A stretch of DNA of 64,000 nt from Patescibacteria group bacterium. Its GTDB lineage: Bacteria > Patescibacteriota > Minisyncoccia > Phycocordibacterales > BOKC01. The stretch lies in contig JBBTWE010000001.1 of NCBI GenBank assembly GCA_038062955.1, forward strand, positions 320,038 to 384,037, in the 5' to 3' direction. The translations under genes were made by a program, and so were the position numbers. The notes under the pieces were generated by a model. It was not told the origin of the DNA. It did not search any database and was given only the letters and a program-made list of their open reading frames with translations. This document shows positions 7,965 to 63,466 of the stretch, one piece after another (positions within the stretch are counted from its first letter, which is position 1; each line of letters begins with the position of its first letter).

Positions 7965-8480
7965 CTACTTGATTTCTATTATCTTATATTTAACCGAACC
8001 TTGTGGAGTGTTGAAAGAAAAAATATCACCTTTCTTTTTTCTCAAAATGGCTTGCCCAAATGGAGATTTGTTTGAAACTTTATTTTTACTTATATCAGCT
8101 TCTTCGGAACCAACGATTGTGAAAGTTTGCGGACCATTCCCTTTTTCTTTTTCTACTGTAACCACAGAGCTTACCGCAACTTCTTCGCTGTTATGAGCTC
8201 CTGTTATTTTTGCTGATTTGAGAAGGATCTCAAGTCTTGCAATTCTATCTTCAACGTTAGCCTGATCTCCACGAGCTTCCTGATATTCAGCGTTTTCTGA
8301 TAAATCACCAAGGGAACGAGCGTATTCCAGATGCTCGGCAATTTCTTTCCTTTTAGTTTTTTTGAGATGCTCTAACTCTTTTGTTAATTCACTAAATTTT
8401 TCTTTGGTTAAGTATTCTGTCTCATTCATAAATATATAACTTCCATATTTGGCCAATTTTGTAGTAAAAACTTGTCTCAA
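7965..8480 (-). CDS. greA: Transcription elongation factor GreA
   Basis: The coiled-coil N-domain plus FKBP-like C-domain and the LSENAEY motif are present. Confidence 0.9.
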   Translation of the reverse strand: MRQVFTTKLAKYGSYIFMNETEYLTKEKFSELTKELEHLKKTKRKEIAEHLEYARSLGDLSENAEYQEARGDQANVEDRIARLEILLKSAKITGAHNSEEVAVSSVVTVEKEKGNGPQTFTIVGSEEADISKNKVSNKSPFGQAILRKKKGDIFSFNTPQGSVKYKIIEIK

Positions 8481-8586
8481 ATCTGAAAGTTCTAAATTTC
8501 TATAGTAAATATTATTATAGTAATAAATAAATTGATTTTGAAATATTATACACCAAAACGTTAAAAGTCAATTCTAAATTTTAGAT

Positions 8587-8626
8587 AAAAAAAGCCCGCA
8601 GCGTTGGATCGTGGACAACGCTGCGG
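8587..8626 (-). terminator. Intrinsic terminator ending the minus-strand transcript of GC-rich island 1 (stem ccgcagcgttg/caacgctgcgg followed by a U-run).
   Basis: Hairpin followed by aaaaaaa on the plus strand, which reads as a U-tract on the minus-strand RNA. Confidence 0.6.
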
Positions 8627-9306
8627 ACCGAGGAACCTCTCGAGGTGCTAGACTTGTACGATTGGGGTCAAGGGTTACCAATCGGCACTCATTCGAGGAC
8701 TCCTCTCACACAGAACAGGGAATAAAGGGTGTTCAACCCTTTGATCCGTCTTCGCTCGCGGATCATGAGAATGCCGTCCACAGGTGTCGACAATGATCCT
8801 GTCGACTCATTCTCGCGATGCCGCTCGCTAGCCGGAATAAAAGCCGAGTCCTCAATCCATTCTCATGTGCGCCAGAACTTCTTCCTGTGAAGTCGTTGCC
8901 TACCATTCCACAGGTTGAGGAGAGCAAACAGACGAGGACTCGGATGTTCTTATTGAATGAAAGTGGTCCTTCCGAAGGGAAGCGACTCCAAAATGGCGGT
9001 ACTGGGGATTTCCCCCGGAAGGACAGTGTTCGGTGCTGTGCTGTATGTGAGAGAAAAAGAGCGAATCTGGGGAGTATTATAGATATCAGAGACCAAAAGT
9101 CAATGATTATAGCTGCCTGCCGGCAGGTATAAAAAAGGGGCCCCCATCTGCCGGTCAGAACAGAAGGGGGCCCACGAAACTTGATCCCGAGACCATATTA
9201 TGGAAAGGGCGGTTAGGGAGGGGGGTACTGGTCTCCATCACACAGCCACGGGATCTTCACCAAGAGCAGTCTGTTGAGTATTGTATACCTTAAAAAATAA
9301 AAGTCA
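8595..9306 (-). ncRNA. GC-rich island 1. This is a roughly 700-nt highly structured region with no ORF of 60 aa or longer and no SD on the transcribed (minus) strand. It is a candidate large structured ncRNA or a decayed cassette.
   Basis: The GC content is far above the flanks. Many long-range perfect stems are present (GGTCCTTCCG/CGGAAGGAC, GGGCCCCC/GGGGGCCC, GATCCCGAGACCA/TGGTCT..CGGGATC). It is bounded by the mrdA terminator and by its own terminator. It does not match RNase P, tmRNA or SRP signatures. Confidence 0.35.
8721..8844 (+). repeat. Modular GC-rich repeat, copy A. It consists of module 1 (aaagggtgttcaaccctttgatccgtcttcgctcgcggatcatgagaat), module 2 (ccgtccacaggtgtcgacaatgatcctgtcgac) and module 3 (cattctcgcgatgccgctcgctagccggaataaa).
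   Basis: It matches the copies at 13643..13768 (outer modules inverted, inner module in the same orientation) and 15036..15122 (lacking module 2). Confidence 0.7.
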
Positions 9307-9383
9307 ACCCCGTAGTGAATTTTGGCATAGTTTTCAACGTGTTTAGACCGAAGTCTAAACAATGCCAAAATCTACTACGGGGT
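9307..9383 (+). repeat. Conserved hairpin element with a 22-bp stem, copy 1. The left arm is ACCCCGTAGTGAATTTTGGCAT, the loop is 33 nt and the right arm is ATGCCAAAATCTACTACGGGGT.
   Basis: The arm sequences are identical to the copies at 17739..17803 and 30420..30486. As plus-strand RNA, 21 of 22 positions pair (including one G-U). Confidence 0.8.
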
Positions 9384-9389
9384 CAAGTA

Positions 9390-9426
9390 CAAAAATGGCC
9401 TGCAACGTCACACGACGTCGCAGGCC
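9390..9426 (-). terminator. Intrinsic terminator of the mre-mrdA operon (ggcctgcaacg..cgtcgcaggcc plus a U-run).
   Basis: The hairpin plus T-tract on the minus strand lies immediately 3' of mrdA. Confidence 0.55.
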
Positions 9427-9615
9427 AGGTCTCGAACAGCCCGAGACCACAAAATGTCCTTCTACCATGGTGATCACGAATCAGGAGGAGGAAGACCACC
9501 ACAGGAGGACAGAGCTGGGTACAGAAGAACGAACCTCTGATTATTATTCTAAACAATTGTTGAGAAAAGTCAAACCCCAAATCAGGTATTAGGGAAAAAT
9601 ACACAGGTACAGAGC

Positions 9616-11316
9616 TTATTTTAGATATTCAGGTGTATTTGCATTCATCCAATCAAAAAGCTGTCTCATCACATAAACCCCTCCGGTTGAATTGGCCCGC
9701 GGGCCTCTTTCCATGGTTATCACGAAAGCATATTTTGGATTTTCATATGGGAAAAAACCTGTTACCCAAGAATTTAGCGATTGCTTGCCAATTTCTGCGG
9801 TTCCAGTTTTGGCGCCAACTTGCACATAGGAAACATTCAAACCGGACGCCGTACCTCGTAAAACTGCTTGCTTCATACCCTCCTTTACTGCCGCGAAAGC
9901 CTCTTTTTTTATTTCAATTGGAACAGAAGATTGTTTTACACCACCCTTTAAAACAGAAGGCGTTAACAGAGTGCCATCATTTGCGATAGCCGCGATTCCG
10001 CGAAGAATTTGAATGGGTGTAAATTGAACACCGTATTGTCCAATTGAAGTATTATAGGTATCTCCAAGTCTCCAATCATCTTCTCCAAACGTTTTTTTCT
10101 TCCATTCCGGATTTGGTATCACACCGATTTTTTCTCCAGGTAAATCAATCCCAGATTTTTGTCCAAACCCAAATTCTCTTAAATATTTTTCTATTTTTTC
10201 TATACCTAAACCTTTTTGATCACCGTATCCCCCGCCCAAAGAATAAAAATAAACGTTCGATGAGACAGCCAAAGCGTCGATTAAATCAACCCAACCATGA
10301 GCTTTCCAATCCGTAAAAACACTTGGTTTATCTGGGAAATATGGATTGGGAATTGAGATTGAGCCAGTGCTTAAAATCTTTTTATTTGGACTCACTAAGT
10401 TTTCATTTAAAGAAGCAATAGCAATAAATGGTTTAATGACCGAACCTGGCACATAAAGTCCTGAAATCGCCCTATTTAAGAAAGGATTGAGTGGATCCTG
10501 TATAAACCCATTGATAGATGGCTTATCATTCCCCTCGCTAAGAATTGTGGAATTATATTCAGGGAAATTTGTAAGCGCTAGTATCTCTCCAGTTTCAACA
10601 TCGATAATAATTCCTGAACCACCTTGAAATTTATAATTTTCTACTGCGCTTTTTATAATCTCAAAAAGCTTATTTTGCACTCCAAAATCAACAGAAAGAC
10701 GGAAACTTTTTCCATCGGTCGGAGGTGAGGTCATATTTTGAGTCTGTATATTTCCCAAAGCGTCAGTTTCAACAATTTTTAGACCATTTTCTCCAATAAG
10801 TGAATTATTGTAAAAACTCTCCACCCCATCTTGACCGACAAAATTTGTCTCCCAATAGAAGCCTGCCTTATCTTTGGTTGGATATTTTATATAACCAAGA
10901 AGATGAGAAAAGCCAGGAAGTTCCGGATAATTACGCTTTGAGAAATCTTCTCCTTCTGGTGAAACGATATTTGTTACTAATTCTTTACCATTTCTATCAG
11001 AGATTATGCCTCTATTTGAAAATATCAAACTTGTTCTCAAACGATTATTTTCACTTCTTTCCAAGTAAGCATTTCCTTGTTTTATCTGTAAAGCCCAGAT
11101 TTTTGAGGAATAAGCCAAAGCCAAAAAAAGAAAGCAAATTAATAAAAATTTAATAGCTATTTGAGAAATAGGTTTTTCTAGGCGTCCTTCAAATTGATCT
11201 GTATCAAAACCTGAAAGATTGCTTGAATCTAAAAATATTTCATCAGGTGTAATAAATTGGTTTTTATAAGAACTTTTAAACCAATTTTTTATTTTTCTTT
11301 TAAAATTTCCTAACAT
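9616..11316 (-). CDS. mrdA: Penicillin-binding protein 2 (peptidoglycan transpeptidase)
   Basis: The N-terminal TM segment, the SVIKP (SxxK) motif, the KTGTAE (KTG) motif and the position after mreBCD all agree. Length is 566 aa. Confidence 0.9.
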   Translation of the reverse strand: MLGNFKRKIKNWFKSSYKNQFITPDEIFLDSSNLSGFDTDQFEGRLEKPISQIAIKFLLICFLFLALAYSSKIWALQIKQGNAYLERSENNRLRTSLIFSNRGIISDRNGKELVTNIVSPEGEDFSKRNYPELPGFSHLLGYIKYPTKDKAGFYWETNFVGQDGVESFYNNSLIGENGLKIVETDALGNIQTQNMTSPPTDGKSFRLSVDFGVQNKLFEIIKSAVENYKFQGGSGIIIDVETGEILALTNFPEYNSTILSEGNDKPSINGFIQDPLNPFLNRAISGLYVPGSVIKPFIAIASLNENLVSPNKKILSTGSISIPNPYFPDKPSVFTDWKAHGWVDLIDALAVSSNVYFYSLGGGYGDQKGLGIEKIEKYLREFGFGQKSGIDLPGEKIGVIPNPEWKKKTFGEDDWRLGDTYNTSIGQYGVQFTPIQILRGIAAIANDGTLLTPSVLKGGVKQSSVPIEIKKEAFAAVKEGMKQAVLRGTASGLNVSYVQVGAKTGTAEIGKQSLNSWVTGFFPYENPKYAFVITMERGPRANSTGGVYVMRQLFDWMNANTPEYLK

Positions 11317-11387
11317 ATAGATTTGTCGAAAATTTCTTATAACTTCGTTACTCGAAATCTTTCGACATGATTTTTAAAGTGTAAAAA

Positions 11388-11657
11388 TCAACGTTTTAGT
11401 AAAAATATTTTCTTTTTCAATATCTCTAGAACTACAAACAATACTATCGCGAAAACAGTTAAAATATAAGCACCAAATAAAACACTCTTTGGCGAATATA
11501 ACAGGTCAAGGAAAAAAGCGAGAAAAATAGATTCAAAATATAAATTAAAATAAAAAATTAATAGAAAAGCTACTGGTAATGTAATCCACCACGGAAGCAC
11601 AAATAGACAAATTAAGAGAAAAACATCAGCAATGATTCTTTTTAAAGTGAGGTTCAT
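11388..11657 (-). CDS. mreD: Rod shape-determining protein MreD
   Basis: An 89-aa polytopic membrane protein located between mreC and mrdA. Confidence 0.65.
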   Translation of the reverse strand: MNLTLKRIIADVFLLICLFVLPWWITLPVAFLLIFYFNLYFESIFLAFFLDLLYSPKSVLFGAYILTVFAIVLFVVLEILKKKIFLLKR

Positions 11658-11717
11658 GATTCAAGAAAAAATTTTAAAATACAGATTTCTAGAACTTTTA
11701 GATTTGGATACAGACCT

Positions 11718-11800
11718 AGGCGCAAGCGAGGAGCGAACCGAGACGTATTTGACAATACGTTGAGGGAGCACCGGAGCGAAGCAACGACGGTATGTGCCAA
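11718..11800. repeat. Intercistronic structured repeat, type A, copy 2 (ccgagACGTATttgacaATACGTtgagggag...cggagcgaagcaacg), located between mreC and mreD.
   Basis: Homologous to 1540..1625 and 20593..20682. Confidence 0.7.
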
Positions 11801-11814
11801 ATATATAAGTTCTT

Positions 11815-12639
11815 TTATTTTTCGATTGAGACCCAGCGTAACTCTGCTAGATTAACGGGTAACCTAACATAGATTTTCTTGAAAGAGGAAGCGGGACCAT
11901 GCTCAACTTCTTCGACTTTTCCCAATATTTTACTTCTCTCACCTGAAATCGTTATTTCATCTCCAATTTCCACTTTTACTTCTTGAGAAACTGAACCTAC
12001 TAAGTTCCCTCCTCCTCGCCCAATCATTTTAATCGGTAATTTTTGAGAACCTAAAAAAGCTTGGGTTTCAATTCCGCCCGAAGAGAATAATCTTATCTTG
12101 GAAGTTTGAGCTAACACCTGAACCACTTCGCCAAGCAAAATATTTTCGAAAAAAACTTTATTCTCTATTTCTATGTTGGCATTTCTACCGACATCTACTA
12201 TAAAAACGTCGTATGATGTGAGTGGTGGTCGAGCTAAAATAAAAGCCGGTATTGTTGATGTAGCTTCAGTTCTTTCTAAAATTGCCCGAAAAGTTTTATT
12301 TTCTTCCTCCAAAAGATCGAGATCAAATGATTTTGCTCTGCGATGAAGCAGTTCTTCTCTTAACTCAATATTCGTTTTTACTAAACTTTCTCTTGAGTTG
12401 ATCAGAGCTGTAAGGATAGAAAATTTATTCTCAATATAAATTTTTGATTTCCAAAAAGGATAAGCTACTCCACCCGCAATATCCGCAAAAACATTTCGCA
12501 GTGGCTTGGACAAAATTGAGAGAATAAAAATAAATAGGATAATACAAAGAGAGAGCAAAACGATTTTTTTGTAATTTCTTTTATTTTTGCGGCGGTAATT
12601 CATCGTCATTTGCAATGAGAACTTCTTTGTAATACTCAA
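11815..12639 (-). CDS. mreC: Rod shape-determining protein MreC. The real start is probably an internal Met, which would reduce the overlap with mreB.
   Basis: N-terminal TM segment, coiled coil and beta-rich C-domain are present, in the expected position in the operon. Length is 274 aa. Confidence 0.8.
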   Translation of the reverse strand: MSITKKFSLQMTMNYRRKNKRNYKKIVLLSLCIILFIFILSILSKPLRNVFADIAGGVAYPFWKSKIYIENKFSILTALINSRESLVKTNIELREELLHRRAKSFDLDLLEEENKTFRAILERTEATSTIPAFILARPPLTSYDVFIVDVGRNANIEIENKVFFENILLGEVVQVLAQTSKIRLFSSGGIETQAFLGSQKLPIKMIGRGGGNLVGSVSQEVKVEIGDEITISGERSKILGKVEEVEHGPASSFKKIYVRLPVNLAELRWVSIEK

Positions 12640-13642: not shown

Positions 13643-13768
13643 TTTTTATTCCGGCTAGCGAGCGACATCGCGAGAATGTACCGTCTACAGGTGTCGACAA
13701 TGACCCTGTCGACCTCATTCTCATGATGCGCGAACGAAGACGGATCAAAGGGGTTTAATACCCTTTAT
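13643..13768 (-). repeat. Modular GC-rich repeat, copy B. It forms the proS-mreB intercistronic leader and abuts the mreB ATG.
   Basis: It is the reverse complement of copy A in its outer modules (tttattccggctagcgagcg..., ...gacggatcaaaggggtttaataccctttatt), with the GTCGAC module retained in the plus orientation. Confidence 0.7.
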
Positions 13769-15010
13769 TATTTTGAGTGTCTCATTCAAATCCGTAATCT
13801 TAATTTCTCCGGACTTTCGGTTTTTTAATTCCAGTTTATTTTCTAGAAGCATCTTCTCGCTTATCACAACTCTCCATGGAATTCCGAGAAGGTCTGAATC
13901 AGATAATTTTTCCCCAGCGCTTACCTTTCTATCATCATGAAGCACTTCAAATCCATTACTTTCAAATTCTTTCAAAATCTTTAACGCTTCGGCAGTAACT
14001 TTCTCTCCTTTTCCAGCAATTTCAATCAGATGAATTCGGAACGGAGCAATTGATTCCGGCCAGACAATTCCCTTCCCGTCTGACAGAACTTCAACAACCG
14101 TACCCATAAGACGACTTGGGCCCATACCATAACAACCCATAATAACTGGCTTTTCTTTGCCTTTTTCATCAATATATTTAAGCCCCAGAGCATCTGAAAA
14201 ACGTGTGCCCAATGAGAAAATATTTCCTACTTCAATTGCTTTTTCTTCTTTAAGATCTTTTTTATTTAGCTTCAGATTTTCCAGCACTTCATCTGTATAA
14301 ACTTCTTTATTAACTGCTAGTTTCTTTTTTTCGTCTACATAAATAACATCTTCTCCGGCCGGAGTTACGGTTTGAAACTCATGGGAATATTTTGAAAATA
14401 TTCCACCAGAAGCAAAAGTCATAAATGTTGTAGCACCTAATCCCAATCTTTCAAATACATTCATGTAGGCAATTTTTGCACGTTCATAGAATTCTTCATG
14501 TTCTTTTTCATCTCGAGCAAAAGAATACATATCTTTCATTTGAAATTCACGGCCACGCATAATACCGCTCTTTGCGCGCACTTCATTTCTAAATTTTGTC
14601 TGAATTTGATAAATAGCTTTCGGTAAATCTTTGTAAGACCGAATATGATCTTTTAGAAGTCGAGTCAAAGGTTCTTCATGACTAAAACCAAGCCCCAACT
14701 TTCCTCCGTTTTTGAGCTCGGTCTTAAACCAGACGTCCACTTTCGCATCCTCCCATCTGTCAGTGGCACTCCACACTTCTTTATCCTGCAAAACTGTTAA
14801 AAGCATTTCTTGACCCCCGATCTTATTCATTTCTTCCCGAACAATGTCTTCAATTTTACGAAGAACAATAAGTCCCAAAGGTAAGAAATCATAAACGCCC
14901 GCGAGCTCTTTATTGATAAAACCACCACGGATTAAAAGCTCGGCATTTTTTGAGACCTCATCTTTTGGGGCCTCCTTTCTAGTTTTAGTGAAAAGATGGG
15001 ATTGTCTCAT
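13745..15010 (-). CDS. proS: Prolyl-tRNA synthetase (short form without an editing insertion)
   Basis: The class II motifs REFQMKDMYSF and GCYGMGPSR are present. The N-terminus aligns with ProRS (RGGFI..GVYDFLPLG..VLRKIEDIVREEM). A C-terminal anticodon-binding domain is present. Confidence 0.85.
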   Translation of the reverse strand: MRQSHLFTKTRKEAPKDEVSKNAELLIRGGFINKELAGVYDFLPLGLIVLRKIEDIVREEMNKIGGQEMLLTVLQDKEVWSATDRWEDAKVDVWFKTELKNGGKLGLGFSHEEPLTRLLKDHIRSYKDLPKAIYQIQTKFRNEVRAKSGIMRGREFQMKDMYSFARDEKEHEEFYERAKIAYMNVFERLGLGATTFMTFASGGIFSKYSHEFQTVTPAGEDVIYVDEKKKLAVNKEVYTDEVLENLKLNKKDLKEEKAIEVGNIFSLGTRFSDALGLKYIDEKGKEKPVIMGCYGMGPSRLMGTVVEVLSDGKGIVWPESIAPFRIHLIEIAGKGEKVTAEALKILKEFESNGFEVLHDDRKVSAGEKLSDSDLLGIPWRVVISEKMLLENKLELKNRKSGEIKITDLNETLKIIKGIKPL

Positions 15011-15035
15011 GATTATTTGAAAAACTTAGAATAAA

Positions 15036-15122
15036 TGGTATTAACCCTTTGATCCGTCTTCGTTCGCGGATCATGAAAAAGAGTACTTTTTCGCGATTCC
15101 GCTCACTAGCCGGAATAAATAA
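15036..15122 (+). repeat. Modular GC-rich repeat, copy C (modules 1 and 3 only), in the rseP-proS intercistronic region.
   Basis: ggtattaaccctttgatccgtcttcgttcgcggatcatga ... cgattccgctcactagccggaataaa. Confidence 0.65.
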
Positions 15123-17042: not shown

Positions 17043-17477
17043 CTACTGTCTGGGTGAACCGGGGAAACGGAAGCCGGTCATCTTCTCGTACTTTTCCAGA
17101 GCAGGATTATCTGCCTCGGGATGCCTCCAGAACGCAACACCAATTCTCATATTGGGATTCTCGGCCCTAAGTCTCGTGAGATGAGAGAAAAGTGTTTGGA
17201 GCTTGGCACACATCGGGGGATTTTCCACTACGGTCTCATCCCCAAAATCGTGCCAAAGTCCGTCACCAGCCAAATCCCATGCAAATTGTTTGGGGTCGTC
17301 ACTCTCTTCCCAACTAACGATCACGAATCCAGAAAGGCCGTTCCCTTGCTTCTGGATGTCCTCGTAGCCTTTCCGACCTTTCGCGGTCTGGAACATGCAT
17401 TCGAGTCGACAGAACAGACGTTCGTGAGCCGCAATACATAGCTCATGTTCCGACCACTGCAGTTGAAGAACTGGCAT
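17043..17477 (-). CDS. Hypothetical protein, the cargo of GC-rich island 2 (144 aa).
   Basis: The coding segment is GC-rich. It has a strong SD (gggagg-N6-ATG) and its own consensus promoter and terminator. No recognisable domain was found. Confidence 0.5.
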   Translation of the reverse strand: MPVLQLQWSEHELCIAAHERLFCRLECMFQTAKGRKGYEDIQKQGNGLSGFVIVSWEESDDPKQFAWDLAGDGLWHDFGDETVVENPPMCAKLQTLFSHLTRLRAENPNMRIGVAFWRHPEADNPALEKYEKMTGFRFPGSPRQ

Positions 17478-17564: not shown

Positions 17565-17593
17565 AGTCAATTGGTTGACTTTTTTTATTAAAG
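17565..17593 (+). promoter_or_regulatory. Consensus sigma70 promoter TTGACT-17-TATATT. It lies back-to-back with the minus-strand promoter and drives a plus-strand transcript of about 130 nt.
   Basis: ttgactttttttattaaagatattatatt. Confidence 0.55.
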
Positions 17594-17599
17594 ATATTA

Positions 17600-17732
17600 T
17601 ATTCTCTCTAAGGAAAGGTGGCGGTATTCGGCAACGTTCTTCAGTCGGAATCATCACCTACCCCAGGGCTCATGTGCACACACTCCTCCTTTGACTGCTG
17701 GTCTGCTTGGTGTGTGCGTGAGCCCTTTTTTT
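17600..17732 (+). ncRNA. Small GC-rich plus-strand transcript of island 2. It may encode a short peptide (GTG start at 17618) and ends at an intrinsic terminator.
   Basis: A promoter lies upstream. The terminator is gggctcatgtgcacacac...gtgtgtgcgtgagccc plus TTTTTTT. The segment shares caacgttc with the island-3 transcript. Confidence 0.4.
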
Positions 17733-17738
17733 ACCCCG

Positions 17739-17803
17739 TAGTGAATTTTGGCATTGTTACTTTTGCAATGGAGTTGTTATGCCAAAATCTACTACGGGGT
17801 TAT
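17739..17803 (+). repeat. Conserved 22-bp-stem hairpin element, copy 2. It sits directly after the island-2 terminator and overlaps the atpC stop codon.
   Basis: The arms are identical to copies 1 and 3. The loop, tgttacttttgcaatggagttgtt, is related to the copy-3 loop (TTGCAA core). Confidence 0.8.
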
Positions 17804-18033: not shown

Positions 18034-18052
18034 TTAAGTAAAGCTGAGATTT

Positions 18053-18175
18053 TAGAACTTCCAGATTTGAGACAAGTTGTTTGATAAAACTGAGTACCGA
18101 AGCGAGACGTATGTACTTATACGGCGAAGCAAGGAACGGAAGTTTTAGCAAAGAAATTGGCCAAATGTGGAAGTT
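18053..18175. repeat. MITE-like 125-bp element, type B, copy 1, with terminal inverted repeats (TIRs, tagaacttcca / tggaagtt) and an internal CGTATgtacttATACG hairpin. It lies between atpD and atpC.
   Basis: About 90% identical to 26716..26843. Confidence 0.75.
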
Positions 18176-18179
18176 ATAA

Positions 18180-20540: not shown

Positions 20541-20592
20541 AATATTTGTAAACTTTGGGACTTAATAGAATTTAATTAATTTGGATGCAATT

Positions 20593-20682
20593 CGAGGCGC
20601 GAGTGAGAACCGTACCGAGACGTATTTAATAATACGTTGAGGGAGGCTCGGAGCGAAGCAACAAAGAAGTGCGCCGAATTAA
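20593..20682. repeat. Intercistronic structured repeat, type A, copy 3, between atpA and atpG.
   Basis: ggcgcgagtgagaaccgtaCCGAGacgtatttaataatacgttgagggaggCTCGGagcgaagcaac. Confidence 0.7.
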
Positions 20683-20688
20683 CAAATT

Positions 20689-22212
20689 CTATTTAAAATA
20701 TTTCTTGAAATCTGAAATAATCGTTTTAATCTTTTCATCAATCTTCGCTGTAATCTCGGCAGTCTCTCGAAGTTCTTTCAAGACCTCTGCATGTCTTTCA
20801 TTCATAAATTCTAAGAGTTTCTTTTCAAACAAAGAGACTGACGCAAGAGGCACGTCATCAATATAACCATTTACTCCGGCATATAGAGAAATAACCTGCT
20901 TTTCAAATGGCATACTCTCATATTGTGGCTGTTTCAATAATTCAACCAATCGTTGTCCACGATTAATCTTTTTTTGAGTTGCTTGATCGAGTTCCTGACC
21001 AAACTGCGCAAAAGCCGCAAGTTCTCTAAATTGGGCGAGTTCAAGCCTCAAAGTACCCGCAACTTTTTTCATAGCTTTTGTCTGGGCCGATGAACCGACA
21101 CGCGACACTGAAAGTCCGACGTTGATAGCTGGTCTTATTCCCTGATAGAAAAGTTCGGGTTCAAGATAAATTTGCCCGTCAGTAATGGAAATAACGTTTG
21201 TTGGCACATAAGCTGAAATATCTCCGAGTTGAGTTTCAATAATTGGGAGCGCAGTAAGAGATCCTCCTCCAAATTCTTTACTTAATCTCGCCGCTCTTTC
21301 AAGAAGTCTTGAGTGAAGATAGAAAATATCTCCAGGATAAGCTTCGCGGCCAGGAGGGCGTCGCAGAAGAAGAGAAACTTGTCTGTATGCCCAAGCGTGC
21401 TTCGAAAGATCATCGTAAATTACGAGAGCGTCCTTTCCTTTATCCATAAAATATTCACCGATAGCACATCCAGCATAAGGAGCTAAATATTGGAGGGACG
21501 CAGGAGAAGCGGCGCCAGCAACAACCACGACCGTGTAATCCATTGCTCCAGACTTTTTTAATTGTTCGACAATGTGAGCAACTTTTGATTCTTTTTGACC
21601 AATCGCAACATAAATACAGATCGGAGTGCCATTTCGAACATCATTTTTCTGATTGATGATTGTATCGATAACGATTGCGGTTTTTCCGGTCTGACGATCA
21701 CCAATAATAAGCTCACGCTGACCTCGGCCGATTGGAATCACCGCGTCAATTGCCTTAATACCAGTTTGAAGTGGCACTTTTACCGATTCTCTGGTTATAA
21801 CTCCTGGAGCAACTTTTTCGAGTGGATAGTGCTCAACTTTATTTTTATCAAATGCTTTTCCTCCATCAATTGGTTCGCCAAGTGGATTGATTACTCTACC
21901 CAAAAGTTCCGAGCCAACGGGAATCGAAAGAATGCGGCCGGTTCCCTTTACTCTCTGTCCTTCAATAACTTTGGTTGAATCTCCGAGAATAATCGCGCCG
22001 ATCGTGTCTTCTTCAAGGTTCAATGCAAGCCCGGTTACTTTTTCGCTTTCTTTTTCGTTTTCAAATTCCAAAATTTCAGAAGACTTTACTCCAGATAATC
22101 CTCGGATGATTGCGACCCCATCCCCCACGCGTAAAACTTCGCCGACATTGCTAACAGACGGACTGCCTTTAATGCCAGAAATTTCTTTTTTTAATTGTTG
22201 TAAAATATCCAT
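20689..22212 (-). CDS. atpA: ATP synthase F1 alpha subunit
   Basis: Walker A (GDRQTGKT) is present. Length is 507 aa. Confidence 0.95.
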
Positions 22213-25908: not shown

Positions 25909-26008
25909 CCCCCACAAGGTCTCGCAGACAAGTTCTGATCGAGGCCTTTCTTTTTTACTTTCAACACTATAACTTCCTGTCTGTCGGCAGGCAGGTACAC
26001 TTTTAACT

Positions 26009-26715: not shown

Positions 26716-26843
26716 GGTAGAACTTTCAGATTTGAGACAAGTTGTTTGATAAAACTGAGCACTGTAGCGAGACGTATTTAATAATACGGCGAGTGAAGAG
26801 CGGAAGTTTTAGCAAAGAAATTGGCCAAATATGGAAGTTCTAC
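26716..26843. repeat. MITE-like 125-bp element, type B, copy 2, between holB and mreB-2. Its right TIR overlaps the mreB-2 stop codon.
   Basis: ggtagaactttcagatttgagacaagttgtttgataaaactgag...gaagttttagcaaagaaattggccaaatatggaagttctac. Confidence 0.75.
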
Positions 26844-30145: not shown

Positions 30146-30170
30146 ACGAAAATTCGACTTGATTTTGAGT

Positions 30171-30199
30171 TTGGTGCACAAACTGACTTGTGGTATATT
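30171..30199 (+). promoter_or_regulatory. Divergent plus-strand promoter (TTGGTG-17-TGg-TATATT, extended -10) driving the island-3 small transcript.
   Basis: ttggtgcacaaactgacttgtggtatatt. Confidence 0.45.
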
Positions 30200-30205
30200 T
30201 TTGCA

Positions 30206-30420
30206 AGAAGCAGGTCGTCTAACGTAGCACAACGCCACAGGACGATCTGTGCCGAACAACGTTCGCAGGAGGACACATGCGCAAGATGAAGCTCTCCAGC
30301 TGATACGACAAGAAGTCGGCCCGTTGTGGAGAACCTTTGAGCCGAAAGAGAACTGTAGGCTCGATGGAACTTCTAACACTCACCCGTTGTGTCCCCCAAA
30401 GGACATGACGGGTGTTTTTT
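30206..30420 (+). ncRNA. Small GC-rich plus-strand transcript of island 3. It contains an SD plus an 8-codon ORF (AGGAGG-N5-ATG MRKMKLSS) and ends at an intrinsic terminator.
   Basis: The terminator is cacccgttgtgtcc..ggacatgacgggtg plus TTTTTT and lies immediately before hairpin copy 3. Confidence 0.4.
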
Positions 30421-30486
30421 ACCCCGTAGTGAATTTTGGCATCGTTGCCTTGCAACAGAGTTGCTATGCCAAAATCTACTACGGGG
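30420..30486 (+). repeat. Conserved 22-bp-stem hairpin element, copy 3, followed by T8.
   Basis: accccgtagtgaattttggcat-cgttgccttgcaacagagttgct-atgccaaaatctactacggggt. Confidence 0.8.
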
Positions 30487-30534
30487 TTTTTTTTGAATCT
30501 ATCACTCTACCTTTTCTAGTGGTACTATAGTGTC

Positions 30535-45376: not shown

Positions 45377-45610
45377 CATAAATTTATTTCTTCTTTTTCT
45401 TTACCCCCCCTACCAAAAACGCCTTTGGTGTGGGAGTTTATATTACTCGTCTCCTCCAAAAAAGCGTTTAAGTCTGATTCTTTGATCCGCCAAACACCGA
45501 CATAAAATTGCTTTAAGGGTTGATACCATTTTACCCCTTCTTAAATTCATTGTCGAAATCGCCGTCTTTTGTCATAAAAGAAAAATGTCGGCTTTCATTG
45601 ATATTTGCCT

Positions 45611-45655
45611 CCGCGGGTAGCCTGCCTGCCGGCAGGGAGTTTCTCTCTCTACGAG
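45611..45655. repeat. A 45-bp element (ctccgcgggtagcctgcctgccggcagggagtttctctct), the left member of an inverted pair with 49219..49262.
   Basis: The reverse complement matches 49219..49262 except for a 4-nt indel. The core is the CTGCCGGCAG palindrome. Confidence 0.65.
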
Positions 45656-45980
45656 AGCAGTATAGGTTTCCCATTTTTTCGGATTTAACATCCTCAAAAA
45701 TATGGGAGAACCTTTTCGAATCCTACCTCGCAAGCAAAATTATTTGCTTGCTCGCGAGTAGGAATTTCTTTCATTACATGAACAGTATACCTTTTGGCTA
45801 AAATTTTCATCCTCGACAAACTTGGATTCAATTTTAGGCTCAAAAGCTTTTCGAATCCTAACGAAGGTGCTATTCAAAGCACCTTCTCCCGCAGAAGCCA
45901 CAAATGACAAAATCCACCGAAAAGGTGGATTTGTGTCAGTGGCTCCGCGGGTAGGATTCGAACCTACGACCAATCGCTTA

Positions 45981-46535
45981 CATTTGTTCCAAAGTTGCCT
46001 TTGGCATGGACTATATCATCATCCTTCATCGGCTGTTTGCAGATGGATGGGATGTGAGGCGCTTCGACTGAATTTTTCAGGCTACTCTCTTTCGAGATAG
46101 TCTCTGAACCTTCCTGCTGATTAGCAGGCTTGGCTGCTGATTGCCCACGTGGGGTTTCCAGCAATTCACCTCATTTTTCATCCTAAATTCCTTTAGGAAG
46201 CTGCGTGATGCCGTCATGTATTTCCATGTGACAATTTGCACAAACGAGTACGCACTTCTTAATTTCCTCTTCGATTTTGGCCCAGGAACGTGTTATGCCT
46301 CCAGAAGCAAGATCGAATTTCTTTGTAGATGGATCGATATGGTGGAAACTAAGAGATCGTTGGCATTTTTTGTAACCACATATAAAACATTTACTGCCTT
46401 TCGTTGCTCTAGCCATTTCACGAAGTTTTCTTCTTCTTCGTTTTACAGCTTCTCGCATGTACTCGGCACGGTCGGCATAGGTTCTTTTTTCTTTCCTGGT
46501 ATACATTAATAAAGTATACCACAGAACCTTCTGAC
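45981..46535 (-). mobile_element. Group I intron (within the anticodon loop of the tRNA) carrying an HNH homing-endonuclease ORF.
   Basis: P7 strands GACUA / UAGUC (cagAGACTAtc ... atATAGTCc), GNRA-capped hairpins (tctcGAAAgaga, ccaaagGCAActttgg), a terminal omega-G and the HNH ORF are all present. Confidence 0.7.
46183..46506 (-). CDS. HNH homing endonuclease (intron-encoded)
   Basis: CFICGYKKC...SFHHIDP...N...CANCHMEIH is the C-x2-C/HH/N/C-x2-C-H HNH signature. Confidence 0.8.
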   Translation of the reverse strand: MYTRKEKRTYADRAEYMREAVKRRRRKLREMARATKGSKCFICGYKKCQRSLSFHHIDPSTKKFDLASGGITRSWAKIEEEIKKCVLVCANCHMEIHDGITQLPKGI

Positions 46536-46645
46536 ACAGGCGACTGCGCTACCACTGCGCCACCGCGGAATATTTGTGGAGAACGAGTTTATAATATCAA
46601 AAAAGTCTTTAAAAGCAATGTGACCATGAAATAAAATTTATCGAA

Positions 46646-47707
46646 CTATCTGCAAGAGGTTCTTCCTCCATCCAAATCATATTCCATCTTCAACCAATCA
46701 AAGTTTAACTCATTTGCTTTGTTGCAAAATTCCTTTGATTGCAATTCATATTCTACTCCAAAAACTGCTTTGTTTTGTGCAATGAATGGTAAAAGAGTTT
46801 CGCATTCATCATATTCAAAACATTGTTCATTCAAAGCAAAATCAAAATAACCAACCAATTCAGGAATTTGCTCTAGATCATTTTTCAAACCAACAGTTAA
46901 TCCTCTTTTATGAGCTTCTTCTGCAAGCCATTTATTATAAGCCAATTGGTGTTGATAGGTTAAAGCAAATCCATTATTGTTCAAATAACCATCCACATTA
47001 TCTGGCTCAACACCATCGCACCCCTTTTTTACCGCTAAATCCAATCTGTTTTTCATAATCGGTGCAATCAAGTCAATTTTGGAAATATCAAGCCATTTCT
47101 CATCCTCCCATCCTTCAAGAGTTCTTCCCTTAACCTCATTTGGAAAATCATCCTCGTCGATTCTCCAATCTTCATAACTTCCAGCACTAAAATAGCAAAT
47201 AACCTTGATACCTTTATTTTGCAATGCATTTATTGCCTCTTTTGAATTATCAAATAAGTCCACATCGTACATGTCAACAACATAGTTTGGATTTAGTGTT
47301 CCCATCAATTGCCATTGCCACGATGTATTTGGATTTGGTTTCCACCAATTAGTATTTTCTAGACTTTCATTGCTTTTAGTAGTTTGTACTTCTTTGAGCT
47401 CTGGTTTGTTTACTTTTGTAGCCTCTATGTTTGAAATATTTTGTTCTGTTGCTTCGTTTATAGTTGTTTTAGATAGTTCTGTTTTTGGGGCCAAAGCAAT
47501 GGTTTCAGATTCTTCTGAATTTGTTGCAATATCTTCTGTTAGCTCAAAGTCTGTAGCTATGTTTGATAGTTGTACTGTGGTAGTTTCCGGAGTCCCCTCT
47601 ATTAATTTTTTCTTATCGTCTGTTTGTTTTATGTTAGCGAAAACGATTGTGCTAACCGCAGCGACGGCCAACACCAATAAAATAATTTTCAGAACTTTTC
47701 TTTTCAT
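46646..47707 (-). CDS. Secreted glycoside hydrolase family 114 (endo-alpha-1,4-polygalactosaminidase / PelA-like) protein
   Basis: A signal peptide is present. The motifs WQWQL, CYFSAGSYEDWR, GWEDEKWLDI and GCDGVEPDNVDGY are GH114 signatures. Confidence 0.75.
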   Translation of the reverse strand: MKRKVLKIILLVLAVAAVSTIVFANIKQTDDKKKLIEGTPETTTVQLSNIATDFELTEDIATNSEESETIALAPKTELSKTTINEATEQNISNIEATKVNKPELKEVQTTKSNESLENTNWWKPNPNTSWQWQLMGTLNPNYVVDMYDVDLFDNSKEAINALQNKGIKVICYFSAGSYEDWRIDEDDFPNEVKGRTLEGWEDEKWLDISKIDLIAPIMKNRLDLAVKKGCDGVEPDNVDGYLNNNGFALTYQHQLAYNKWLAEEAHKRGLTVGLKNDLEQIPELVGYFDFALNEQCFEYDECETLLPFIAQNKAVFGVEYELQSKEFCNKANELNFDWLKMEYDLDGGRTSCR

Positions 47708-47771
47708 TCTTTAATTATAGTACATCATTAGGATTTTTTAAATTAAACACATTAGTGGTAAAATATAGCTA

Positions 47772-49127
47772 ATGCGTCAAAACATCTTGTCGAAAAATAG
47801 GAAGGGGTTCTCACAAATTATTTTATTAGGCATCGTGGCTATACTTGTTTTAGTTGGGGCCGGCGGATTTTTGTTATTGCCTGAAAAAGAAAAGTCTATC
47901 CCCAATATTCCAATACAACCCTCCAATCCCCAAACACAGTCAGAATTAAAACTAACAGAAAACATCCAGCCAGCATCGCAAAATGTAGAAATCGTAAAAA
48001 ATGTTGATCGGGTGCCTAATACTGACAGTAGTGCGGTACAGATAGGCAAGAGATTTTCCAATGGAGCATGTGATGGGAGCGGGAAAAAGCTTATGACCAC
48101 TGCCCCAATGAATCCCGAGGATGTACAGATGATTTTGCCATACGGCACGATGGTGGGCGCTCATGTGATACCAACATCGCACCAGTATCTAGAACCATGG
48201 GATAGAGCTCTAGGTCGGGATAAATATGAAGTGCGAGCGGCAATGGACGCAACCCTCTATTCGATTAGCAGAAGAGCCCAAAACGTCGAATCGGGTGAAG
48301 CGCGGCCAGAAGAATTTCAACTTTGGTTTGCCATCACATGTACGCACTTTTATTATTATGATTTGATGACGAGTCTCTCTCCAGAGCTCCAGAAGATTTT
48401 TGATGAAGAAAAGCGTCAAGATGATTATGCTTATGTACATATTCCAGTGAAAGCTGGACAAGTGGTGGGAAAGATAGGAGCGCAGACATTGGATTATGGT
48501 GTTTGGGATACGGAGCTACCGCCCACTACAGGCATCCTGGTGCCCGAGCACTATCAGTGGGACAGCTTTCGTGTTTATCTTGCTGACCCGCTTAACTACT
48601 ATACCGATGAGTTGAAAAAGATCATGCTGTCAAAATATGTCCGAACGGCCGAACCAATTTCGGGCAAAGTCGATTATGATATCGACGGAAAACTGATCGG
48701 TGGATGGTTTCTGGAAGGCACAGGGAATCTGACAGGAGGAAATTTCCAAAAGTATTGGGCTGGGCATCTGGCCATAGCGCCCGAATATCTCGATCCCAGT
48801 GTTTATTTGATTTCGGTTGGAGACTTCGCGGGTGAAGAGAAACAATTCTCGATACCCAGAAACGCTCCCGATCCAAAAAGTGTCGGGGTAGAGACGGGAC
48901 TAGTCAAATATGATCTGTTACCATGGCAATATTTGAAATCGGACGGAACGATTTGGGATTGGAAGAAATATGCAAAAGGATTGAAAATTGTGAATGGGCA
49001 TCAGAACTTTGGGTGCGTCGCTATCCAGATGATAGAGTCTCGCAAACTAAAATTTGAGGGCTTTAAAGGTAAAAGCTGTGCCAGTGTTAGCGGATTTACT
49101 AGCGCGGCTAAGATTTATGAACGCTAA
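47772..49127 (+). CDS. Hypothetical secreted/membrane-anchored protein (451 aa)
   Basis: An N-terminal TM/signal segment is present. No recognised domain. Confidence 0.5.
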   Translation: MRQNILSKNRKGFSQIILLGIVAILVLVGAGGFLLLPEKEKSIPNIPIQPSNPQTQSELKLTENIQPASQNVEIVKNVDRVPNTDSSAVQIGKRFSNGACDGSGKKLMTTAPMNPEDVQMILPYGTMVGAHVIPTSHQYLEPWDRALGRDKYEVRAAMDATLYSISRRAQNVESGEARPEEFQLWFAITCTHFYYYDLMTSLSPELQKIFDEEKRQDDYAYVHIPVKAGQVVGKIGAQTLDYGVWDTELPPTTGILVPEHYQWDSFRVYLADPLNYYTDELKKIMLSKYVRTAEPISGKVDYDIDGKLIGGWFLEGTGNLTGGNFQKYWAGHLAIAPEYLDPSVYLISVGDFAGEEKQFSIPRNAPDPKSVGVETGLVKYDLLPWQYLKSDGTIWDWKKYAKGLKIVNGHQNFGCVAIQMIESRKLKFEGFKGKSCASVSGFTSAAKIYER

Positions 49128-49218
49128 GGTCACTTTCTTTTTTCTCAAGATGTCAATACTACTTTGAGAAACTTCTTTTGAAAAAATGGGAAATCTATAC
49201 TGTTCTCGTAGAGAGAAA

Positions 49219-49262
49219 CTCCCTGCCTGCCGGCAGGCAGGCTACCCGCGGAGTCTACAAAC
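49219..49262. repeat. A 45-bp element, the right member of the inverted pair with 45611..45655.
   Basis: agagaaactccctgcctgccggcaggcaggctacccgcggag. Confidence 0.65.
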
Positions 49263-62658: not shown

Positions 62659-63255
62659 CCCGTCTACAGGTGTCGACGCCTAACCCGTCGACCCCTCGTT
62701 GTTTGTTCTCACTGATTCGTGAATCACTCTCGTGAGTCTGATGGAGATCTCCAATCCCAATCACCCGGACCGAAATGAAAATCCCACTTCTGTTCCTTCT
62801 GATTCCACCGCAGTTTTGGTAGCCGCTTACCATTCACCATCGTTGATACTTGTCCTGGGAACGCGATTGTTCCTGGTATGGACAGATCAGGCTGTTCCTC
62901 CATCAGTTTGAGCATTTCTGCAGACCCAGCCGAACGACAACGCCACAACTTCATCAGCAACCTGTACCGCCTCATCGTCATGGGGACAGGAAGGCAGAAA
63001 CAGAGGAGCGCGCCGAGCTTCGTGGGACGATAGGCCTTCTGCCGCAACACCTTGCCGAGGAGATACGCCTTGAGCACCCAAAGCACATCGAGGACGAATC
63101 CGCGCACGGCACTGACACGATCACCGAACGAAAGGTTCTTGTTCTTCACGGTCTGTTCTCCTATCGAGGTTGAATTTCTGTTTTTGTGACTTAGCGAAAT
63201 TGCTTTGCCACAGCAGGAGACGGGTCGACGGGTTGGGCGTCGACACCTGTAGACG
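62659..63255. mobile_element. MITE/IS-like GC-rich element of about 600 bp, bounded by 35-bp near-perfect terminal inverted repeats (ccgtctacaggtgtcgacgcc[t/c]aacccgtcgaccc). It contains one GTG-start ORF.
   Basis: The TIRs are at 62659..62693 and 63221..63255 (34 of 35 positions match). The same GTCGAC-N9-GTCGAC motif occurs in the modular repeat copies A and B. Hairpins flank each TIR. Confidence 0.6.
62724..63149 (-). CDS. Hypothetical protein inside the TIR-bounded element (GTG start with a taggaga SD)
   Basis: ORF track plus the SD. The protein is Arg/Trp-rich. Coding status is uncertain. Confidence 0.3.
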   Translation of the reverse strand: MKNKNLSFGDRVSAVRGFVLDVLWVLKAYLLGKVLRQKAYRPTKLGALLCFCLPVPMTMRRYRLLMKLWRCRSAGSAEMLKLMEEQPDLSIPGTIAFPGQVSTMVNGKRLPKLRWNQKEQKWDFHFGPGDWDWRSPSDSRE

Positions 63256-63466
63256 GCCCTCCTCCTGCTGTGGCAAAAACGTTGTAAATCAGTGAGTTTT
63301 TAATGAACAATTTTCTGTGTCCAGTATACACCCATTCGTGTATTTTGTCAAGCACAAATTGTATATAACAAATAGACGGCTAGGAACAAGGGTGTTTTAA
63401 TACATAGGCCGAGCCTATGTATGATGATTTTATTCTTGAATCGTGAATCATAAATCTTGAATCTGA

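Follow-up and report, generated by a model that had tools for sequence, protein, structure and literature searches.

The question raised by this locus was what a Patescibacteria genome encodes in a long GC-rich spacer between mrdA and greA. The window, the whole stretch of 64,000 nucleotides (nt) analysed here (contig JBBTWE010000001.1, positions 320,038 to 384,037), has the minus-strand gene order mreB–mreC–mrdA–[island]–greA–uvrD-like–pif1-like, and the original prediction had taken positions 8595–9306 for one large structured non-coding RNA (ncRNA). The non-coding block was found to be larger, 8430–9615, because greA starts at the ATG at 8429 and not at the TTG at 8480. With a little better than even confidence, we read the island as three small-RNA (sRNA) gene cassettes on the minus strand, here called Units A, B and C, together with two palindromic repeats resembling miniature inverted-repeat transposable elements (MITEs), the sRNAs acting in trans through C/U-rich loops. 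The interval 8595–9306 holds Unit B complete (~142 nt), Unit C with its own promoter and a 122-nt dispersed repeat, and Unit A and a 75-base-pair (bp) palindromic insertion lie just beyond it.

Cassette architecture of the mrdA–greA spacer

All three cassettes followed one plan, which consisted of a TTGACTTTT-N16-TAnAAT promoter, a 5' motif, a GC-rich hairpin body and an intrinsic terminator. Each had one or two long GC-rich hairpins whose large apical loop presents a C/U-rich sequence with CCUCC. Four same-strand TTGACT-N16/17-TAnAAT sites were located within 1.1 kb (9573, 9307, 9103 and 8571, the last being that of greA), and a promoter scan returned 8 sites in the region compared to 2.6±1.7 expected. 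Half of the TTGACTTTT occurrences of the window (4/8) were inside the region, all on the minus strand; TTGACTTTT with a 16-nt spacer and TAnAAT is the canonical promoter of this lineage. A start motif, CAGA..GYTCKT, was found exactly 6 nt past the -10 hexamer in Units A, B and C. Its loose form, YAGA-N1–4-[CG]YTC[TG]T, occurred 13 times in the window and was preceded by a promoter in three cases only (9539, 9273 and 9069), and the island was therefore taken as three paralogous cassettes. Their predicted extents are about 9539–9390 for Unit A, about 9273–9131 for Unit B and from about 9069 for Unit C. The features are as follows.

9546–9573, minus strand: Unit A promoter (-35 TTGACT at 9573–9568, 16-nt spacer, -10 TAGAAT at 9551–9546)
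9390–9539, minus strand: Unit A predicted transcript, ~150 nt, beginning CAGAGGTTCGT
9280–9307, minus strand: Unit B promoter (-35 TTGACT at 9307–9302, 16-nt spacer, -10 TACAAT at 9285–9280)
9131–9273, minus strand: Unit B predicted transcript, ~142 nt, beginning CAGACTGCTCTT
9076–9103, minus strand: Unit C promoter (-35 TTGACT at 9103–9098, 16-nt spacer, -10 TATAAT at 9081–9076)
8834–9069, minus strand: Unit C conserved part, beginning CAGATTCGCTCTT
8587–8720, minus strand: unique 3' segment (14-bp stem at 8629–8593 and U7 at 8592–8587; fold z -4.06)

Minus-strand terminators were identified at 9427–9396 (followed by AUUUUUG), 9173–9138 (U6) and 8629–8593 (U7), with GC stems of 12–14 bp and U6–7 tracts, and U-runs followed the terminator hairpins on the minus strand only. 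The fold z-score was lower on the minus than on the plus strand for Unit A (-6.07 and -4.97) and Unit B (-2.77 and -0.95). The minus strand was taken as the RNA strand because of the U-tracts, these z-scores and the G·U pairs of Unit B. CCTCC was found at four sites on the minus strand within the island and at none on the plus strand, compared to 0.7 per kb window-wide.

The closer relatives, numbered as L loci, were collected by searches with the penicillin-binding protein 2 (PBP2, encoded by mrdA) and GreA proteins. Their spacers are as follows.

L056: PBP2 86% identical to the window; spacer of 1713 nt including an IS3-type transposase pair; order mrdA–A–[IS3 orfA/orfB]–B–greA, without Unit C
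L058: PBP2 84% identical; spacer of 325 nt; no cassette
L059: PBP2 81% identical; contig end 613 nt past mrdA; order mrdA–A–B–C, with the Unit A terminator directly followed by the Unit B promoter
L061: PBP2 67% identical; spacer of 53 nt; no cassette
L174: GreA 91% identical; 880 nt upstream of greA readable; order C (~255 nt, own terminator)–B–[hairpin repeat]–greA
L177: GreA 73% identical; spacer of ~155 nt; no cassette

No cassette was found at the mrdA–greA locus of L178 either. The units are independent because their order and presence differ among relatives, and each keeps its own promoter and its own terminator there, as independent sRNA genes do. The promoter hexamers were invariant in L056, L059 and L174 whereas their flanks diverged, and conservation with compensatory base changes was seen across four related lineages. 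Overall, the cassettes were gained, reshuffled and interrupted by MITE-like repeats within a narrow clade.

The Unit A promoter scored 10/12 in the scan; both hexamers were kept in L056, and the tail of L059 has TTGACTTT…TATAAT before its Unit A. A long hairpin (9511–9455) presents the 18-nt loop UUCCUCCUCCUGAUUCGU at 9493–9476 and is followed by a second hairpin (9448–9428) and the terminator. RNAalifold on the window, L056 and L059 sequences gave 45 pairs, six of them with compensatory double changes, and the terminator sequence differed in all three. Homologues of Unit A were found by nhmmer in L056/L057 and L059/L060 only. Viral sequences scanned with a loose Unit A motif returned 65 matches, all of them due to chance, and nhmmer detected nothing in them.

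The Unit C promoter scored 11/12, the best of the region, and was conserved in L059 and L174. A leader of ~45 nt ends in CCGAACAC and is followed by a long-range stem, GUCCUUCCG/CGGAAGGAC (9024–8966), around GGGGGAAAUCCCC, and by a second long hairpin (8943–8844) with CUUUUAUU after it, which is a possible first termination point. The length of Unit C would thus be ~235 nt, or up to ~480 nt to the last terminator (8629–8587), which is also the last before the greA promoter. Homologues were found by nhmmer in L059 (E 1e-6) and L174 (E 2e-8), and a 13-bp stem (CCUUCC/GGAAGG) was kept in three lineages, mainly with G-C to G-U changes. The unique segment 8587–8720 had no homologue in any locus.

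Many observations of the original prediction were borne out. The GC content was 0.49–0.51 over 8701–9300 compared to ~0.38–0.40 for the window, and the described stems are present: GGTCCTTCCG (8965–8974) with CGGAAGGAC (9016–9024), GGGGCCCCC (9138–9146) with GGGGGCCC (9167–9174), the nested GATCCCG..AGACCA/TGGTCT..CGGGATC (9184–9256) and GGGGATTTCCCC (9005–9016). The strong downstream terminator is also present on the minus strand (14-bp hairpin and U7, 8629–8587), and the repeat copies inside the island are genuine. Dense structure was confirmed against shuffled sequences on the minus strand for 8585–9070 (z -5.3), 9390–9538 (z -6.1), 9131–9272 (z -2.8) and 8587–8720 (z -4.1). The covariation check that had been proposed showed conserved stems, compensatory changes and strand-specific G·U pairs. 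Other statements needed correction. The island is not uninterrupted, since an internal terminator (9173–9131) is followed by a promoter (9103–9076), and the hairpin taken for the mrdA terminator as the upstream bound (9427–9396) sits downstream of a separate promoter (9573–9546). It is also not the only large GC-rich segment, as others lie at ~17.1–17.7, 24.9–25.5, 29.7–30.4 and 62.6–63.3 kb.

A single structured ncRNA of a new class, of at least 700 nt across the island, would agree with the good overall fold of 8560–9620 on the minus strand (minimum free energy (MFE) -399 kcal/mol), with the long-range stems, which lie inside Unit C, and with zero Rfam family matches. However, the total fold energy was alike on both strands (-399 and -386 kcal/mol), predicted pairs fell nearly all within individual units, and two segments are dispersed repeats. 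Conserved promoters and terminators lie inside the island, and one RNA is incompatible with units that are separate and reordered in relatives. The single RNA is thus highly improbable; what stood of it is a structured, minus-strand sequence of no Rfam class. For annotation, the island should not be entered as one ncRNA, nor the mechanical open reading frames (ORFs) within it as genes.

The island had been described as lacking any ORF of at least 60 amino acids (aa), whereas two plus-strand ORFs were found, 8818–9132 (104 aa) and 8611–8796 (61 aa). Neither was called as a gene on public contigs, no counterpart of the sequence under them was found in the loci of relatives, and the 104-aa ORF, the one of the two that was scanned, had no Pfam match. 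The units are non-coding because indels break the reading frames in Units A and B: an indel in the Unit A hairpin loop shifts the frame of its sole AUG, and the Unit B loop has a length polymorphism of 1 nt (one C) among homologues. A protein-coding or decayed gene was rejected, as tblastx against the spacers of relatives matched the RNA units only and not the IS3 genes. It had been suggested that an ORF in homologous regions would mark a decayed cassette; L056 does carry an IS3 transposase between Units A and B, but the island does not resemble this transposase at the protein level.

The whole window was searched with cmscan against Rfam 15 at gathering thresholds; the sole match was Intron_gpI at 45988–46271, and the island had none, as the original prediction had expected. 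Within 8400–9700 at E up to 10, only hairpin-level matches to microRNA and sRNA models were returned (none above 25 bits, where the cut-offs are 39–82). No Rfam match was found on 14 homologous loci, and on three homologous loci at E up to 5 only a terminator-level BjrC68 match was seen (21 bits against a cut-off of 39). RNase P, tmRNA and SRP, which had been looked for by eye, and likewise 6S, OLE, GOLLD, ROOL, HEARO and raiA were rejected, with no match at gathering score; 6C, ar14 and any GraL model present in Rfam 15 were also below the gathering threshold. ARAGORN found no tRNA or tmRNA in the window. TIGR-Tas arrays (PMC12045711) were rejected because the island has no tandem-repeat array structure. 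Literature searches on the loop sequence and on sRNAs of the Candidate Phyla Radiation (CPR) or Planctomycetes returned nothing relevant, and no description of regulatory RNAs in CPR/Patescibacteria was found.

Two further cassette-like sequences were observed on the plus strand of the window. At 17575–17725 a GC-rich body with a TTGACTTTT promoter is followed by a terminator and then a copy of the palindromic hairpin repeat; it is conserved in L056 and occurs twice in tandem in L058. At ~30150–30415 a GC-rich body, terminator and hairpin repeat are arranged in the same way, and this cassette is conserved in L058 at another locus, with pif1 and pyruvate kinase on either side. Relocatable sRNA-like cassettes seem to form a family in this genome.

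Unit B and its Phycisphaerae-type relatives

The Unit B promoter scored 10/12 and was conserved in L056, L059 and L174. Its hairpin (9255–9183, 7+16 bp) presents the 25-nt loop CCAGUACCCCCCUCCCUAACCGCCC at 9231–9207, and the terminator (9173–9138) has the loop UUCUGACCGG and U6 at 9136–9131. Among the CPR sequences 7 of 30 pairs were compensatory, and the basal 7-bp stem changed from GAUCCCG/CGGGAUC to GGUCGUG/CACGACC.

A scan of JGI metagenomes with the loop pattern CCAGTANCC-N0–2-CCCTCCCTAACCGCC returned 46 loci, of which two were CPR relatives and 44 were high-GC contigs (GC 0.59–0.73; L063–L108 without L073 and L097) from soil, freshwater, marine and engineered sites. The relatives L056 and L059 derive from JGI 3300020195 and 3300020057, and a Phycisphaerae-type copy (L075) is carried under the contig name Ga0163153, which belongs to the adjacent accession series. 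On the high-GC contigs the motif was found in the 3' part of a unit of ~290–300 nt which runs from a conserved promoter-like site, TTGAAA-N17-CATGAT, to a terminator. An NtrC-type gene follows the RNA on four of these contigs; on one of them (L095) the closest database relatives are labelled Planctomycetota or Phycisphaerales. Conserved motifs of this Phycisphaerae-type RNA are GGCUAGCCUGG, GCGAAACGCUCUCUGAC and a GACUGACCAUCG loop, and several contigs have a GGDEF-like gene and a gene for an NtrC-type regulator downstream of it.

A profile built from 25 high-GC sequences alone matched the window at 9250–9128 on the minus strand (E 9.6e-19) with its positions 221–333, while positions 1–220 had no match in the window. 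Unit B and the Phycisphaerae-type RNA were 74–76% identical by blastn over 117–129 nt and ~94% identical over a 50-nt core. A covariance model of the 3' domain (R1, 20 training sequences including the window) gave 88.2 bits for the window, a training member, as its only credible match there, and 80.9 bits for L174, which was outside the training set. In an alignment of 41 sequences, 95.9% of cells paired and 13 of 32 pairs had double changes compared to 3.9±1.2 in shuffled alignments (0/500 shuffles as high); slid partners gave at most seven such pairs. G·U was the commonest state at five positions of the upper stem. The 25-nt loop (CCAGUAYCCCCCUCCCUAACCGCCC) and the terminator loop UUCUGACCGG were near-invariant in both lineages, a conservation of the Unit B loop well beyond what is usual for sRNAs.

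The shared part, the 3' ~115 nt of the Phycisphaerae-type RNA, comprises the 16-bp G·U-rich stem, the 25-nt loop, the spacer and the UUCUGACCGG-loop terminator, together with a CAG(C)AGAC motif at the CPR transcript start. Only the Phycisphaerae-type RNA carries a further ~180 nt of hairpins on the 5' side (GGCUAGCC, GCGAAACGC and a CUGACCA loop). In Unit B a CPR-type promoter of its own stands at the start of the shared domain, and the genomic contexts are unrelated. These sequence comparisons show homology between Unit B and the 3' domain of the ~290–300-nt RNA, and the link of Unit B to that RNA has therefore uncovered an unannotated RNA family in a second phylum. The ~290–300-nt RNA belongs to no Rfam 15 family, nothing on it was found in the literature searched, and it seems to represent a separate, undescribed family of RNAs. 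We infer that Unit B may have reached the CPR lineage, or both lineages, by horizontal transfer. A phage or plasmid origin of the family was rejected, with no match in plasmids, phages or IMG/VR.

Structural homology of Units A and C to Unit B was also rejected, as R1 finds Unit B alone, and neither unit had a match in 193 kb of Phycisphaerae-type loci.

Proposed function and alternatives

In the proposed mechanism the spacer, formerly a few tens of bases long, would have reached 1186 nt by a tandem array of three paralogous cassettes, into which two MITE-like palindromic repeats would have been inserted later. Each of Units A, B and C would be transcribed as a separate stable sRNA and would act in trans through its exposed C/U-rich loop by pairing with G-rich sequences, for example ribosome-binding regions. 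The apical loops of Unit A (UUCCUCCUCCUGAUUCGU) and Unit B (CCAGUACCCCCCUCCCUAACCGCCC) were unpaired in the MFE, centroid and consensus folds. The Unit C homologue of L059 has the C/U-rich loop AAUCCUCCUUCC, and the second half of that of L174 contains the C/U-rich sequence CUCCCUCCUUGACUGAC.

Trans-acting sRNAs with C/U-rich loops are by analogy the most likely function, because of the loops themselves and the precedents of 6C and αr14/NfeR1. RsaE is another member of this functional class of base-pairing sRNAs with anti-Shine-Dalgarno or C-rich loops. In the 6C sRNA (B11) of Actinobacteria, a small RNA, C-rich apical loops base-pair directly with G-rich mRNA sites, with no chaperone involved (PMC6486639). 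The island shares with 6C the C-rich apical loop, and that of Unit B has runs of 5–6 C; however, Unit B has no Rfam 6C match and its loop is longer (25 nt) and invariant across phyla. In the αr14/NfeR1 family of Alphaproteobacteria ("cuckoo" RNAs), an ultraconserved, C/U-rich and anti-Shine-Dalgarno-like motif, CCUCCUCCC, is presented unpaired by divergent hairpin stems (PMC10746234), and the Unit A loop contains CCUCCUCCU in parallel. The differences are that αr14/NfeR1 has three hairpins in one RNA whereas the island units are separate genes with one main motif hairpin each, that no sequence or covariance-model similarity was found (Rfam, E up to 10), and that the host genome of the island is mostly without Shine-Dalgarno (SD) sequences. 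Members of the αr14 family stand at variable genomic places, a trait shared with the cassettes.

Several points weigh against the proposed reading. The transcript start and stop sites of Units A, B and C are predictions, and only 3–4 CPR sequences stand behind Units A and C. The Unit C stem has one compensatory pair. The 3' boundary of the unit is ambiguous, and for the downstream half (8587–8842) there is no homologue. Transfer of Unit B is putative, and so would be any direction given to it. Most window genes have no SD, and no start region pairs with the loops above background: over the 50 start regions of the window (64 kb out of a genome of ~0.7 Mb), the energies of duplexes with the loops were no better than those of random 45-mers, and the best target, GGGAGG before 17043–17477 (-12.5 kcal/mol), was within the background range. 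A general anti-SD role is therefore unsupported here. Finally, ~35 nt of Unit B (GGAGACCAGUAYCCCCCUCCCUAACCGCCCUYUCC) and its terminator loop are near-invariant across two phyla, which exceeds a usual pairing seed and suggests a protein or a conserved RNA as partner.

The 50 start regions were nearly all without SD and AU-rich upstream. The clearest exception was the GGGAGG before the GC-rich ORF 17043–17477 (144 aa), which is conserved in L058 and had no Pfam match.

If such a partner exists, the separate RNAs would act through a conserved protein or cellular RNA, as a sponge, ribonucleoprotein component or decoy, and not by mRNA pairing. The 25-nt loop and the terminator loop UUCUGACCGG would then be recognition sites, which agrees with their near-invariance in Patescibacteria and Phycisphaerae-type homologues while the stems covary, with the recurrence of CUGACC in a second hairpin loop, GACUGACCAUCG, of the long Phycisphaerae-type RNA, and with the scarcity of SD sequences and the negative target search described above. 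However, no candidate partner protein lies beside the RNA in either lineage, and it has greA and mrdA as neighbours here but GspF-like, GGDEF-like and NtrC-type genes on the Phycisphaerae-type contigs. Units A and C also have C/U-rich loops, but of other sequences, which fits diversified pairing seeds better than a single protein site. We consider this explanation rather unlikely, although it is the strongest of the alternatives to pairing sRNAs.

A more specific form is improbable at present, namely that a CPR lineage captured the 3' module of a Phycisphaerae RNA, provided it with its own promoter and duplicated and diversified it, with the invariant loop kept by the same conserved partner in the CPR cell or, conceivably, in a planctomycete host. 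CPR/Patescibacteria are presumed obligate episymbionts. If the capture were true, the cassettes would be a first family of sRNAs in CPR and would also point, at the molecular level, to an association with a host, and if the sharing of Unit B reflects gene transfer, it would bear on the partners of these episymbionts.

The position of the cassettes directly upstream of greA on the same strand, in all three cases visible (the window, L056 and L174), allows the array to be read as a long cis-acting greA leader in which read-through from tandem promoters past leaky terminators would fix the level of greA transcription or autoregulate it. In Escherichia coli about two thirds of the greA leader transcripts are terminated to give GraL, which contributes to autoregulation (PMC2836576, PMC6829880). 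The island has in common with GraL the short terminated transcripts, here predicted ones, that lie just before greA and share its strand (PMC2836576, PMC6829880). GraL arises from greA's own promoters and one leader terminator, whereas the island has three extra promoter–terminator units before a separate greA promoter, and such units also occur away from greA, at the unrelated loci 17575 and 30150. The greA gene keeps its own conserved promoter past the last terminator, and relatives without cassettes share it. The terminators are strong (GC stems of 12–14 bp and U6–7), no Rfam match was found including any GraL model in the library, and the Phycisphaerae-type homologue of Unit B lies upstream of GGDEF-like/NtrC-type genes on the contigs examined. 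Control of greA by read-through is accordingly doubtful.

CPR genomes are tiny and have been annotated mostly protein by protein. On the trans-acting sRNA reading, this locus would supply three comparatively supported sRNA genes with predicted promoters, 5' motifs, loops and terminators. In kind they would be bacterial sRNA genes; what is new are the RNA families, Unit B above all, with its Planctomycetes-type link, and their phylogenetic distribution is unusual.

Locus, inserted repeats and other observations

The flanking features and the repeats of the spacer are as follows.

7965–8429, minus strand: greA, with ATG start at 8429
8435–8496: terminal-inverted-repeat element, TAGAACTTYCAGATTTG…CAAATRTGGAAGTTATA, present as a short copy within the 5' leader of greA
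8543–8571, minus strand: greA's own promoter, TTGACTTTTAACGTTTTGGTGTATAATAT, by promoter scan
8721–8842: dispersed repeat of 122 nt with modular, MITE/BOX-like make-up, lying within Unit C or following it
9113–9127: CTGCCTGCCGGCAGG palindrome between the Unit B terminator and the Unit C promoter, dispersed repeat family D12
9308–9382: 75-bp palindromic MITE-like element, CCCCGTAGTGAATTTTGGCAT…ATGCCAAAATCTACTACGGGG, with TCAA repeats at 9304–9307 and 9383–9386
9616–11316, minus strand: mrdA (PBP2)

GreA was identical on the NCBI contig CAYIIC010000001.1 (assembly GCA_964363395.1), which is 100% identical to the window, and on Hainich groundwater contigs. The top species-level relatives by PBP2 were Patescibacteria metagenome-assembled genomes (labelled Paceibacteria, Parcubacteria, Nomurabacteria or Saccharibacteria) at 57% identity or less. 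In a syntenic set of 30 relatives the median mrdA–greA gap was ~40 nt and only two gaps exceeded 500 nt; with the 1186 nt found here, the enlargement of the spacer is lineage-specific. The greA promoter was kept in L056, L058, L174 and L177, i.e. in relatives with and without cassettes. The island sequence is unique within the window, repeats excepted.

The 75-bp element lies between the Unit A terminator and the Unit B -35, and its TCAA direct repeats read TTGA on the minus strand. The insertion point is empty in L059, in which Units A and B are adjacent with an uninterrupted AAACTTGACTTTTAT, and in L174 a palindrome copy (717–796) stands before the greA -35 with the same TTGAC duplication. 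By comparison of these sites, 9308–9382 is a MITE-like insertion that appears to have regenerated the Unit B -35 hexamer. The palindrome CCCCGTAGT…ACTACGGGG thus stands immediately before a -35 with a TTGA(C) duplication in both the window island and L174, which suggests a MITE that may target promoter -35 boxes and restore them. The other two window copies (17733–17801 and 30421–30488) are directly after terminators and have ambiguous flanks. The palindrome has a fold z of about -9 on both strands.

The 122-nt repeat has an inverted copy at 13644–13769, between a class II aminoacyl-tRNA synthetase gene (13745–15010) and mreB, a copy without the central module at 15029–15122 and a copy in L056 downstream of greA (12169–12294). 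Its central 33-nt hairpin module is flipped relative to the flanks between copies, and the module alone was found at 62660–62697 and 63219–63256 as an inverted pair around a GC-rich ORF of 141 aa (62724–63149), which had no Pfam match. A RAYT/IS200-type origin of the repeats was rejected, as the two 141-aa ORFs near the modules had no Pfam match and were mutually unrelated. Both repeat families are MITE-like in having dispersed copies whose presence differs among close relatives, and no transposase was found in the window for either (9308–9382 and 8721–8842).

Small non-autonomous repeats of bacteria include MITEs, REP/BIME, BOX, Correia and RPE elements. Like these, the two repeats are short, palindromic, multi-copy, intergenic and orientation-independent; 8721–8842 shares the modular make-up of BOX, and 9308–9382 has an apparent 4–5-bp flanking duplication. 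They differ from MITE/RAYT systems in that no transposase or RAYT partner was identified, and the hairpin element differs from known small repeats in its apparent insertion site, TTGAC of the -35 hexamer, which it seems to restore.

Insertions of this kind bear on whether the island could be functionless debris, i.e. foreign GC-rich fragments and mobile repeats in an insertion hot spot. The mrdA–greA spacer is a repeated insertion target because L056 carries an IS3-type element at the same place (10415–11421, ORFs of 102 aa and 233 aa, the latter rve_3) between Units A and B. The expansion is lineage-specific, Unit B looks foreign, two or three MITE-like repeats lie inside the island, and the 3' half of Unit C (8587–8842) has no homologue. 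In addition, contigs from other samples end inside the spacer at 8764, 8789 and 9019, the first two within the 122-nt repeat. However, the repeats account for only ~210 of 1186 nt, and Units A, B and the 5' part of Unit C persist in lineages 9–19% apart in the flanking PBP2/GreA protein, with intact promoters and terminators and compensatory stem changes. The MITE-like insertion also appears to have regenerated the Unit B -35 rather than destroying it. We regard debris as very unlikely, though not to the degree of a single large RNA.

The D12 palindrome has copies at 25971, 35396 and 49217, and its motif is also found in the inverted-repeat arms 45620–45648/49210–49238; in L174 a longer CTGCCTGCCGGCAGG-type copy stands directly before the Unit C -35. 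The terminal-inverted-repeat element, whose family has TAGAACTTCCAGATTTG terminal inverted repeats, has longer copies at 18051–18178 and 26718–26842 and is also present in the L058 spacer. Another intergenic repeat family of 121 nt with the core GTATGTACTTATACGG was found at 1526–1646, 11703–11823 and 20580–20700. The repeat load is unusually high for a genome of ~0.7 Mb.

Finally, inverted repeats of ~72 nt (45609–45680 and 49180–49253, 86–95% complementary) surround a 3.5-kb segment with a tRNA gene that contains an intron, a gene for a GH114 glycoside hydrolase and an uncharacterized ORF of 451 aa. This segment (45609–49253) could be mobile or invertible. The tRNA gene (45940–46566, minus strand; 5' half …GCGGTGGCGCAGTGGTAGCGCAGTCGCCT…, 3' half …GGTCGTAGGTTCGAATCCTACCCGCGGAGCCA) is split by a group I intron of ~570 nt with an HNH-type endonuclease ORF, and the Rfam Intron_gpI match at 45988–46271 scored 78 bits.

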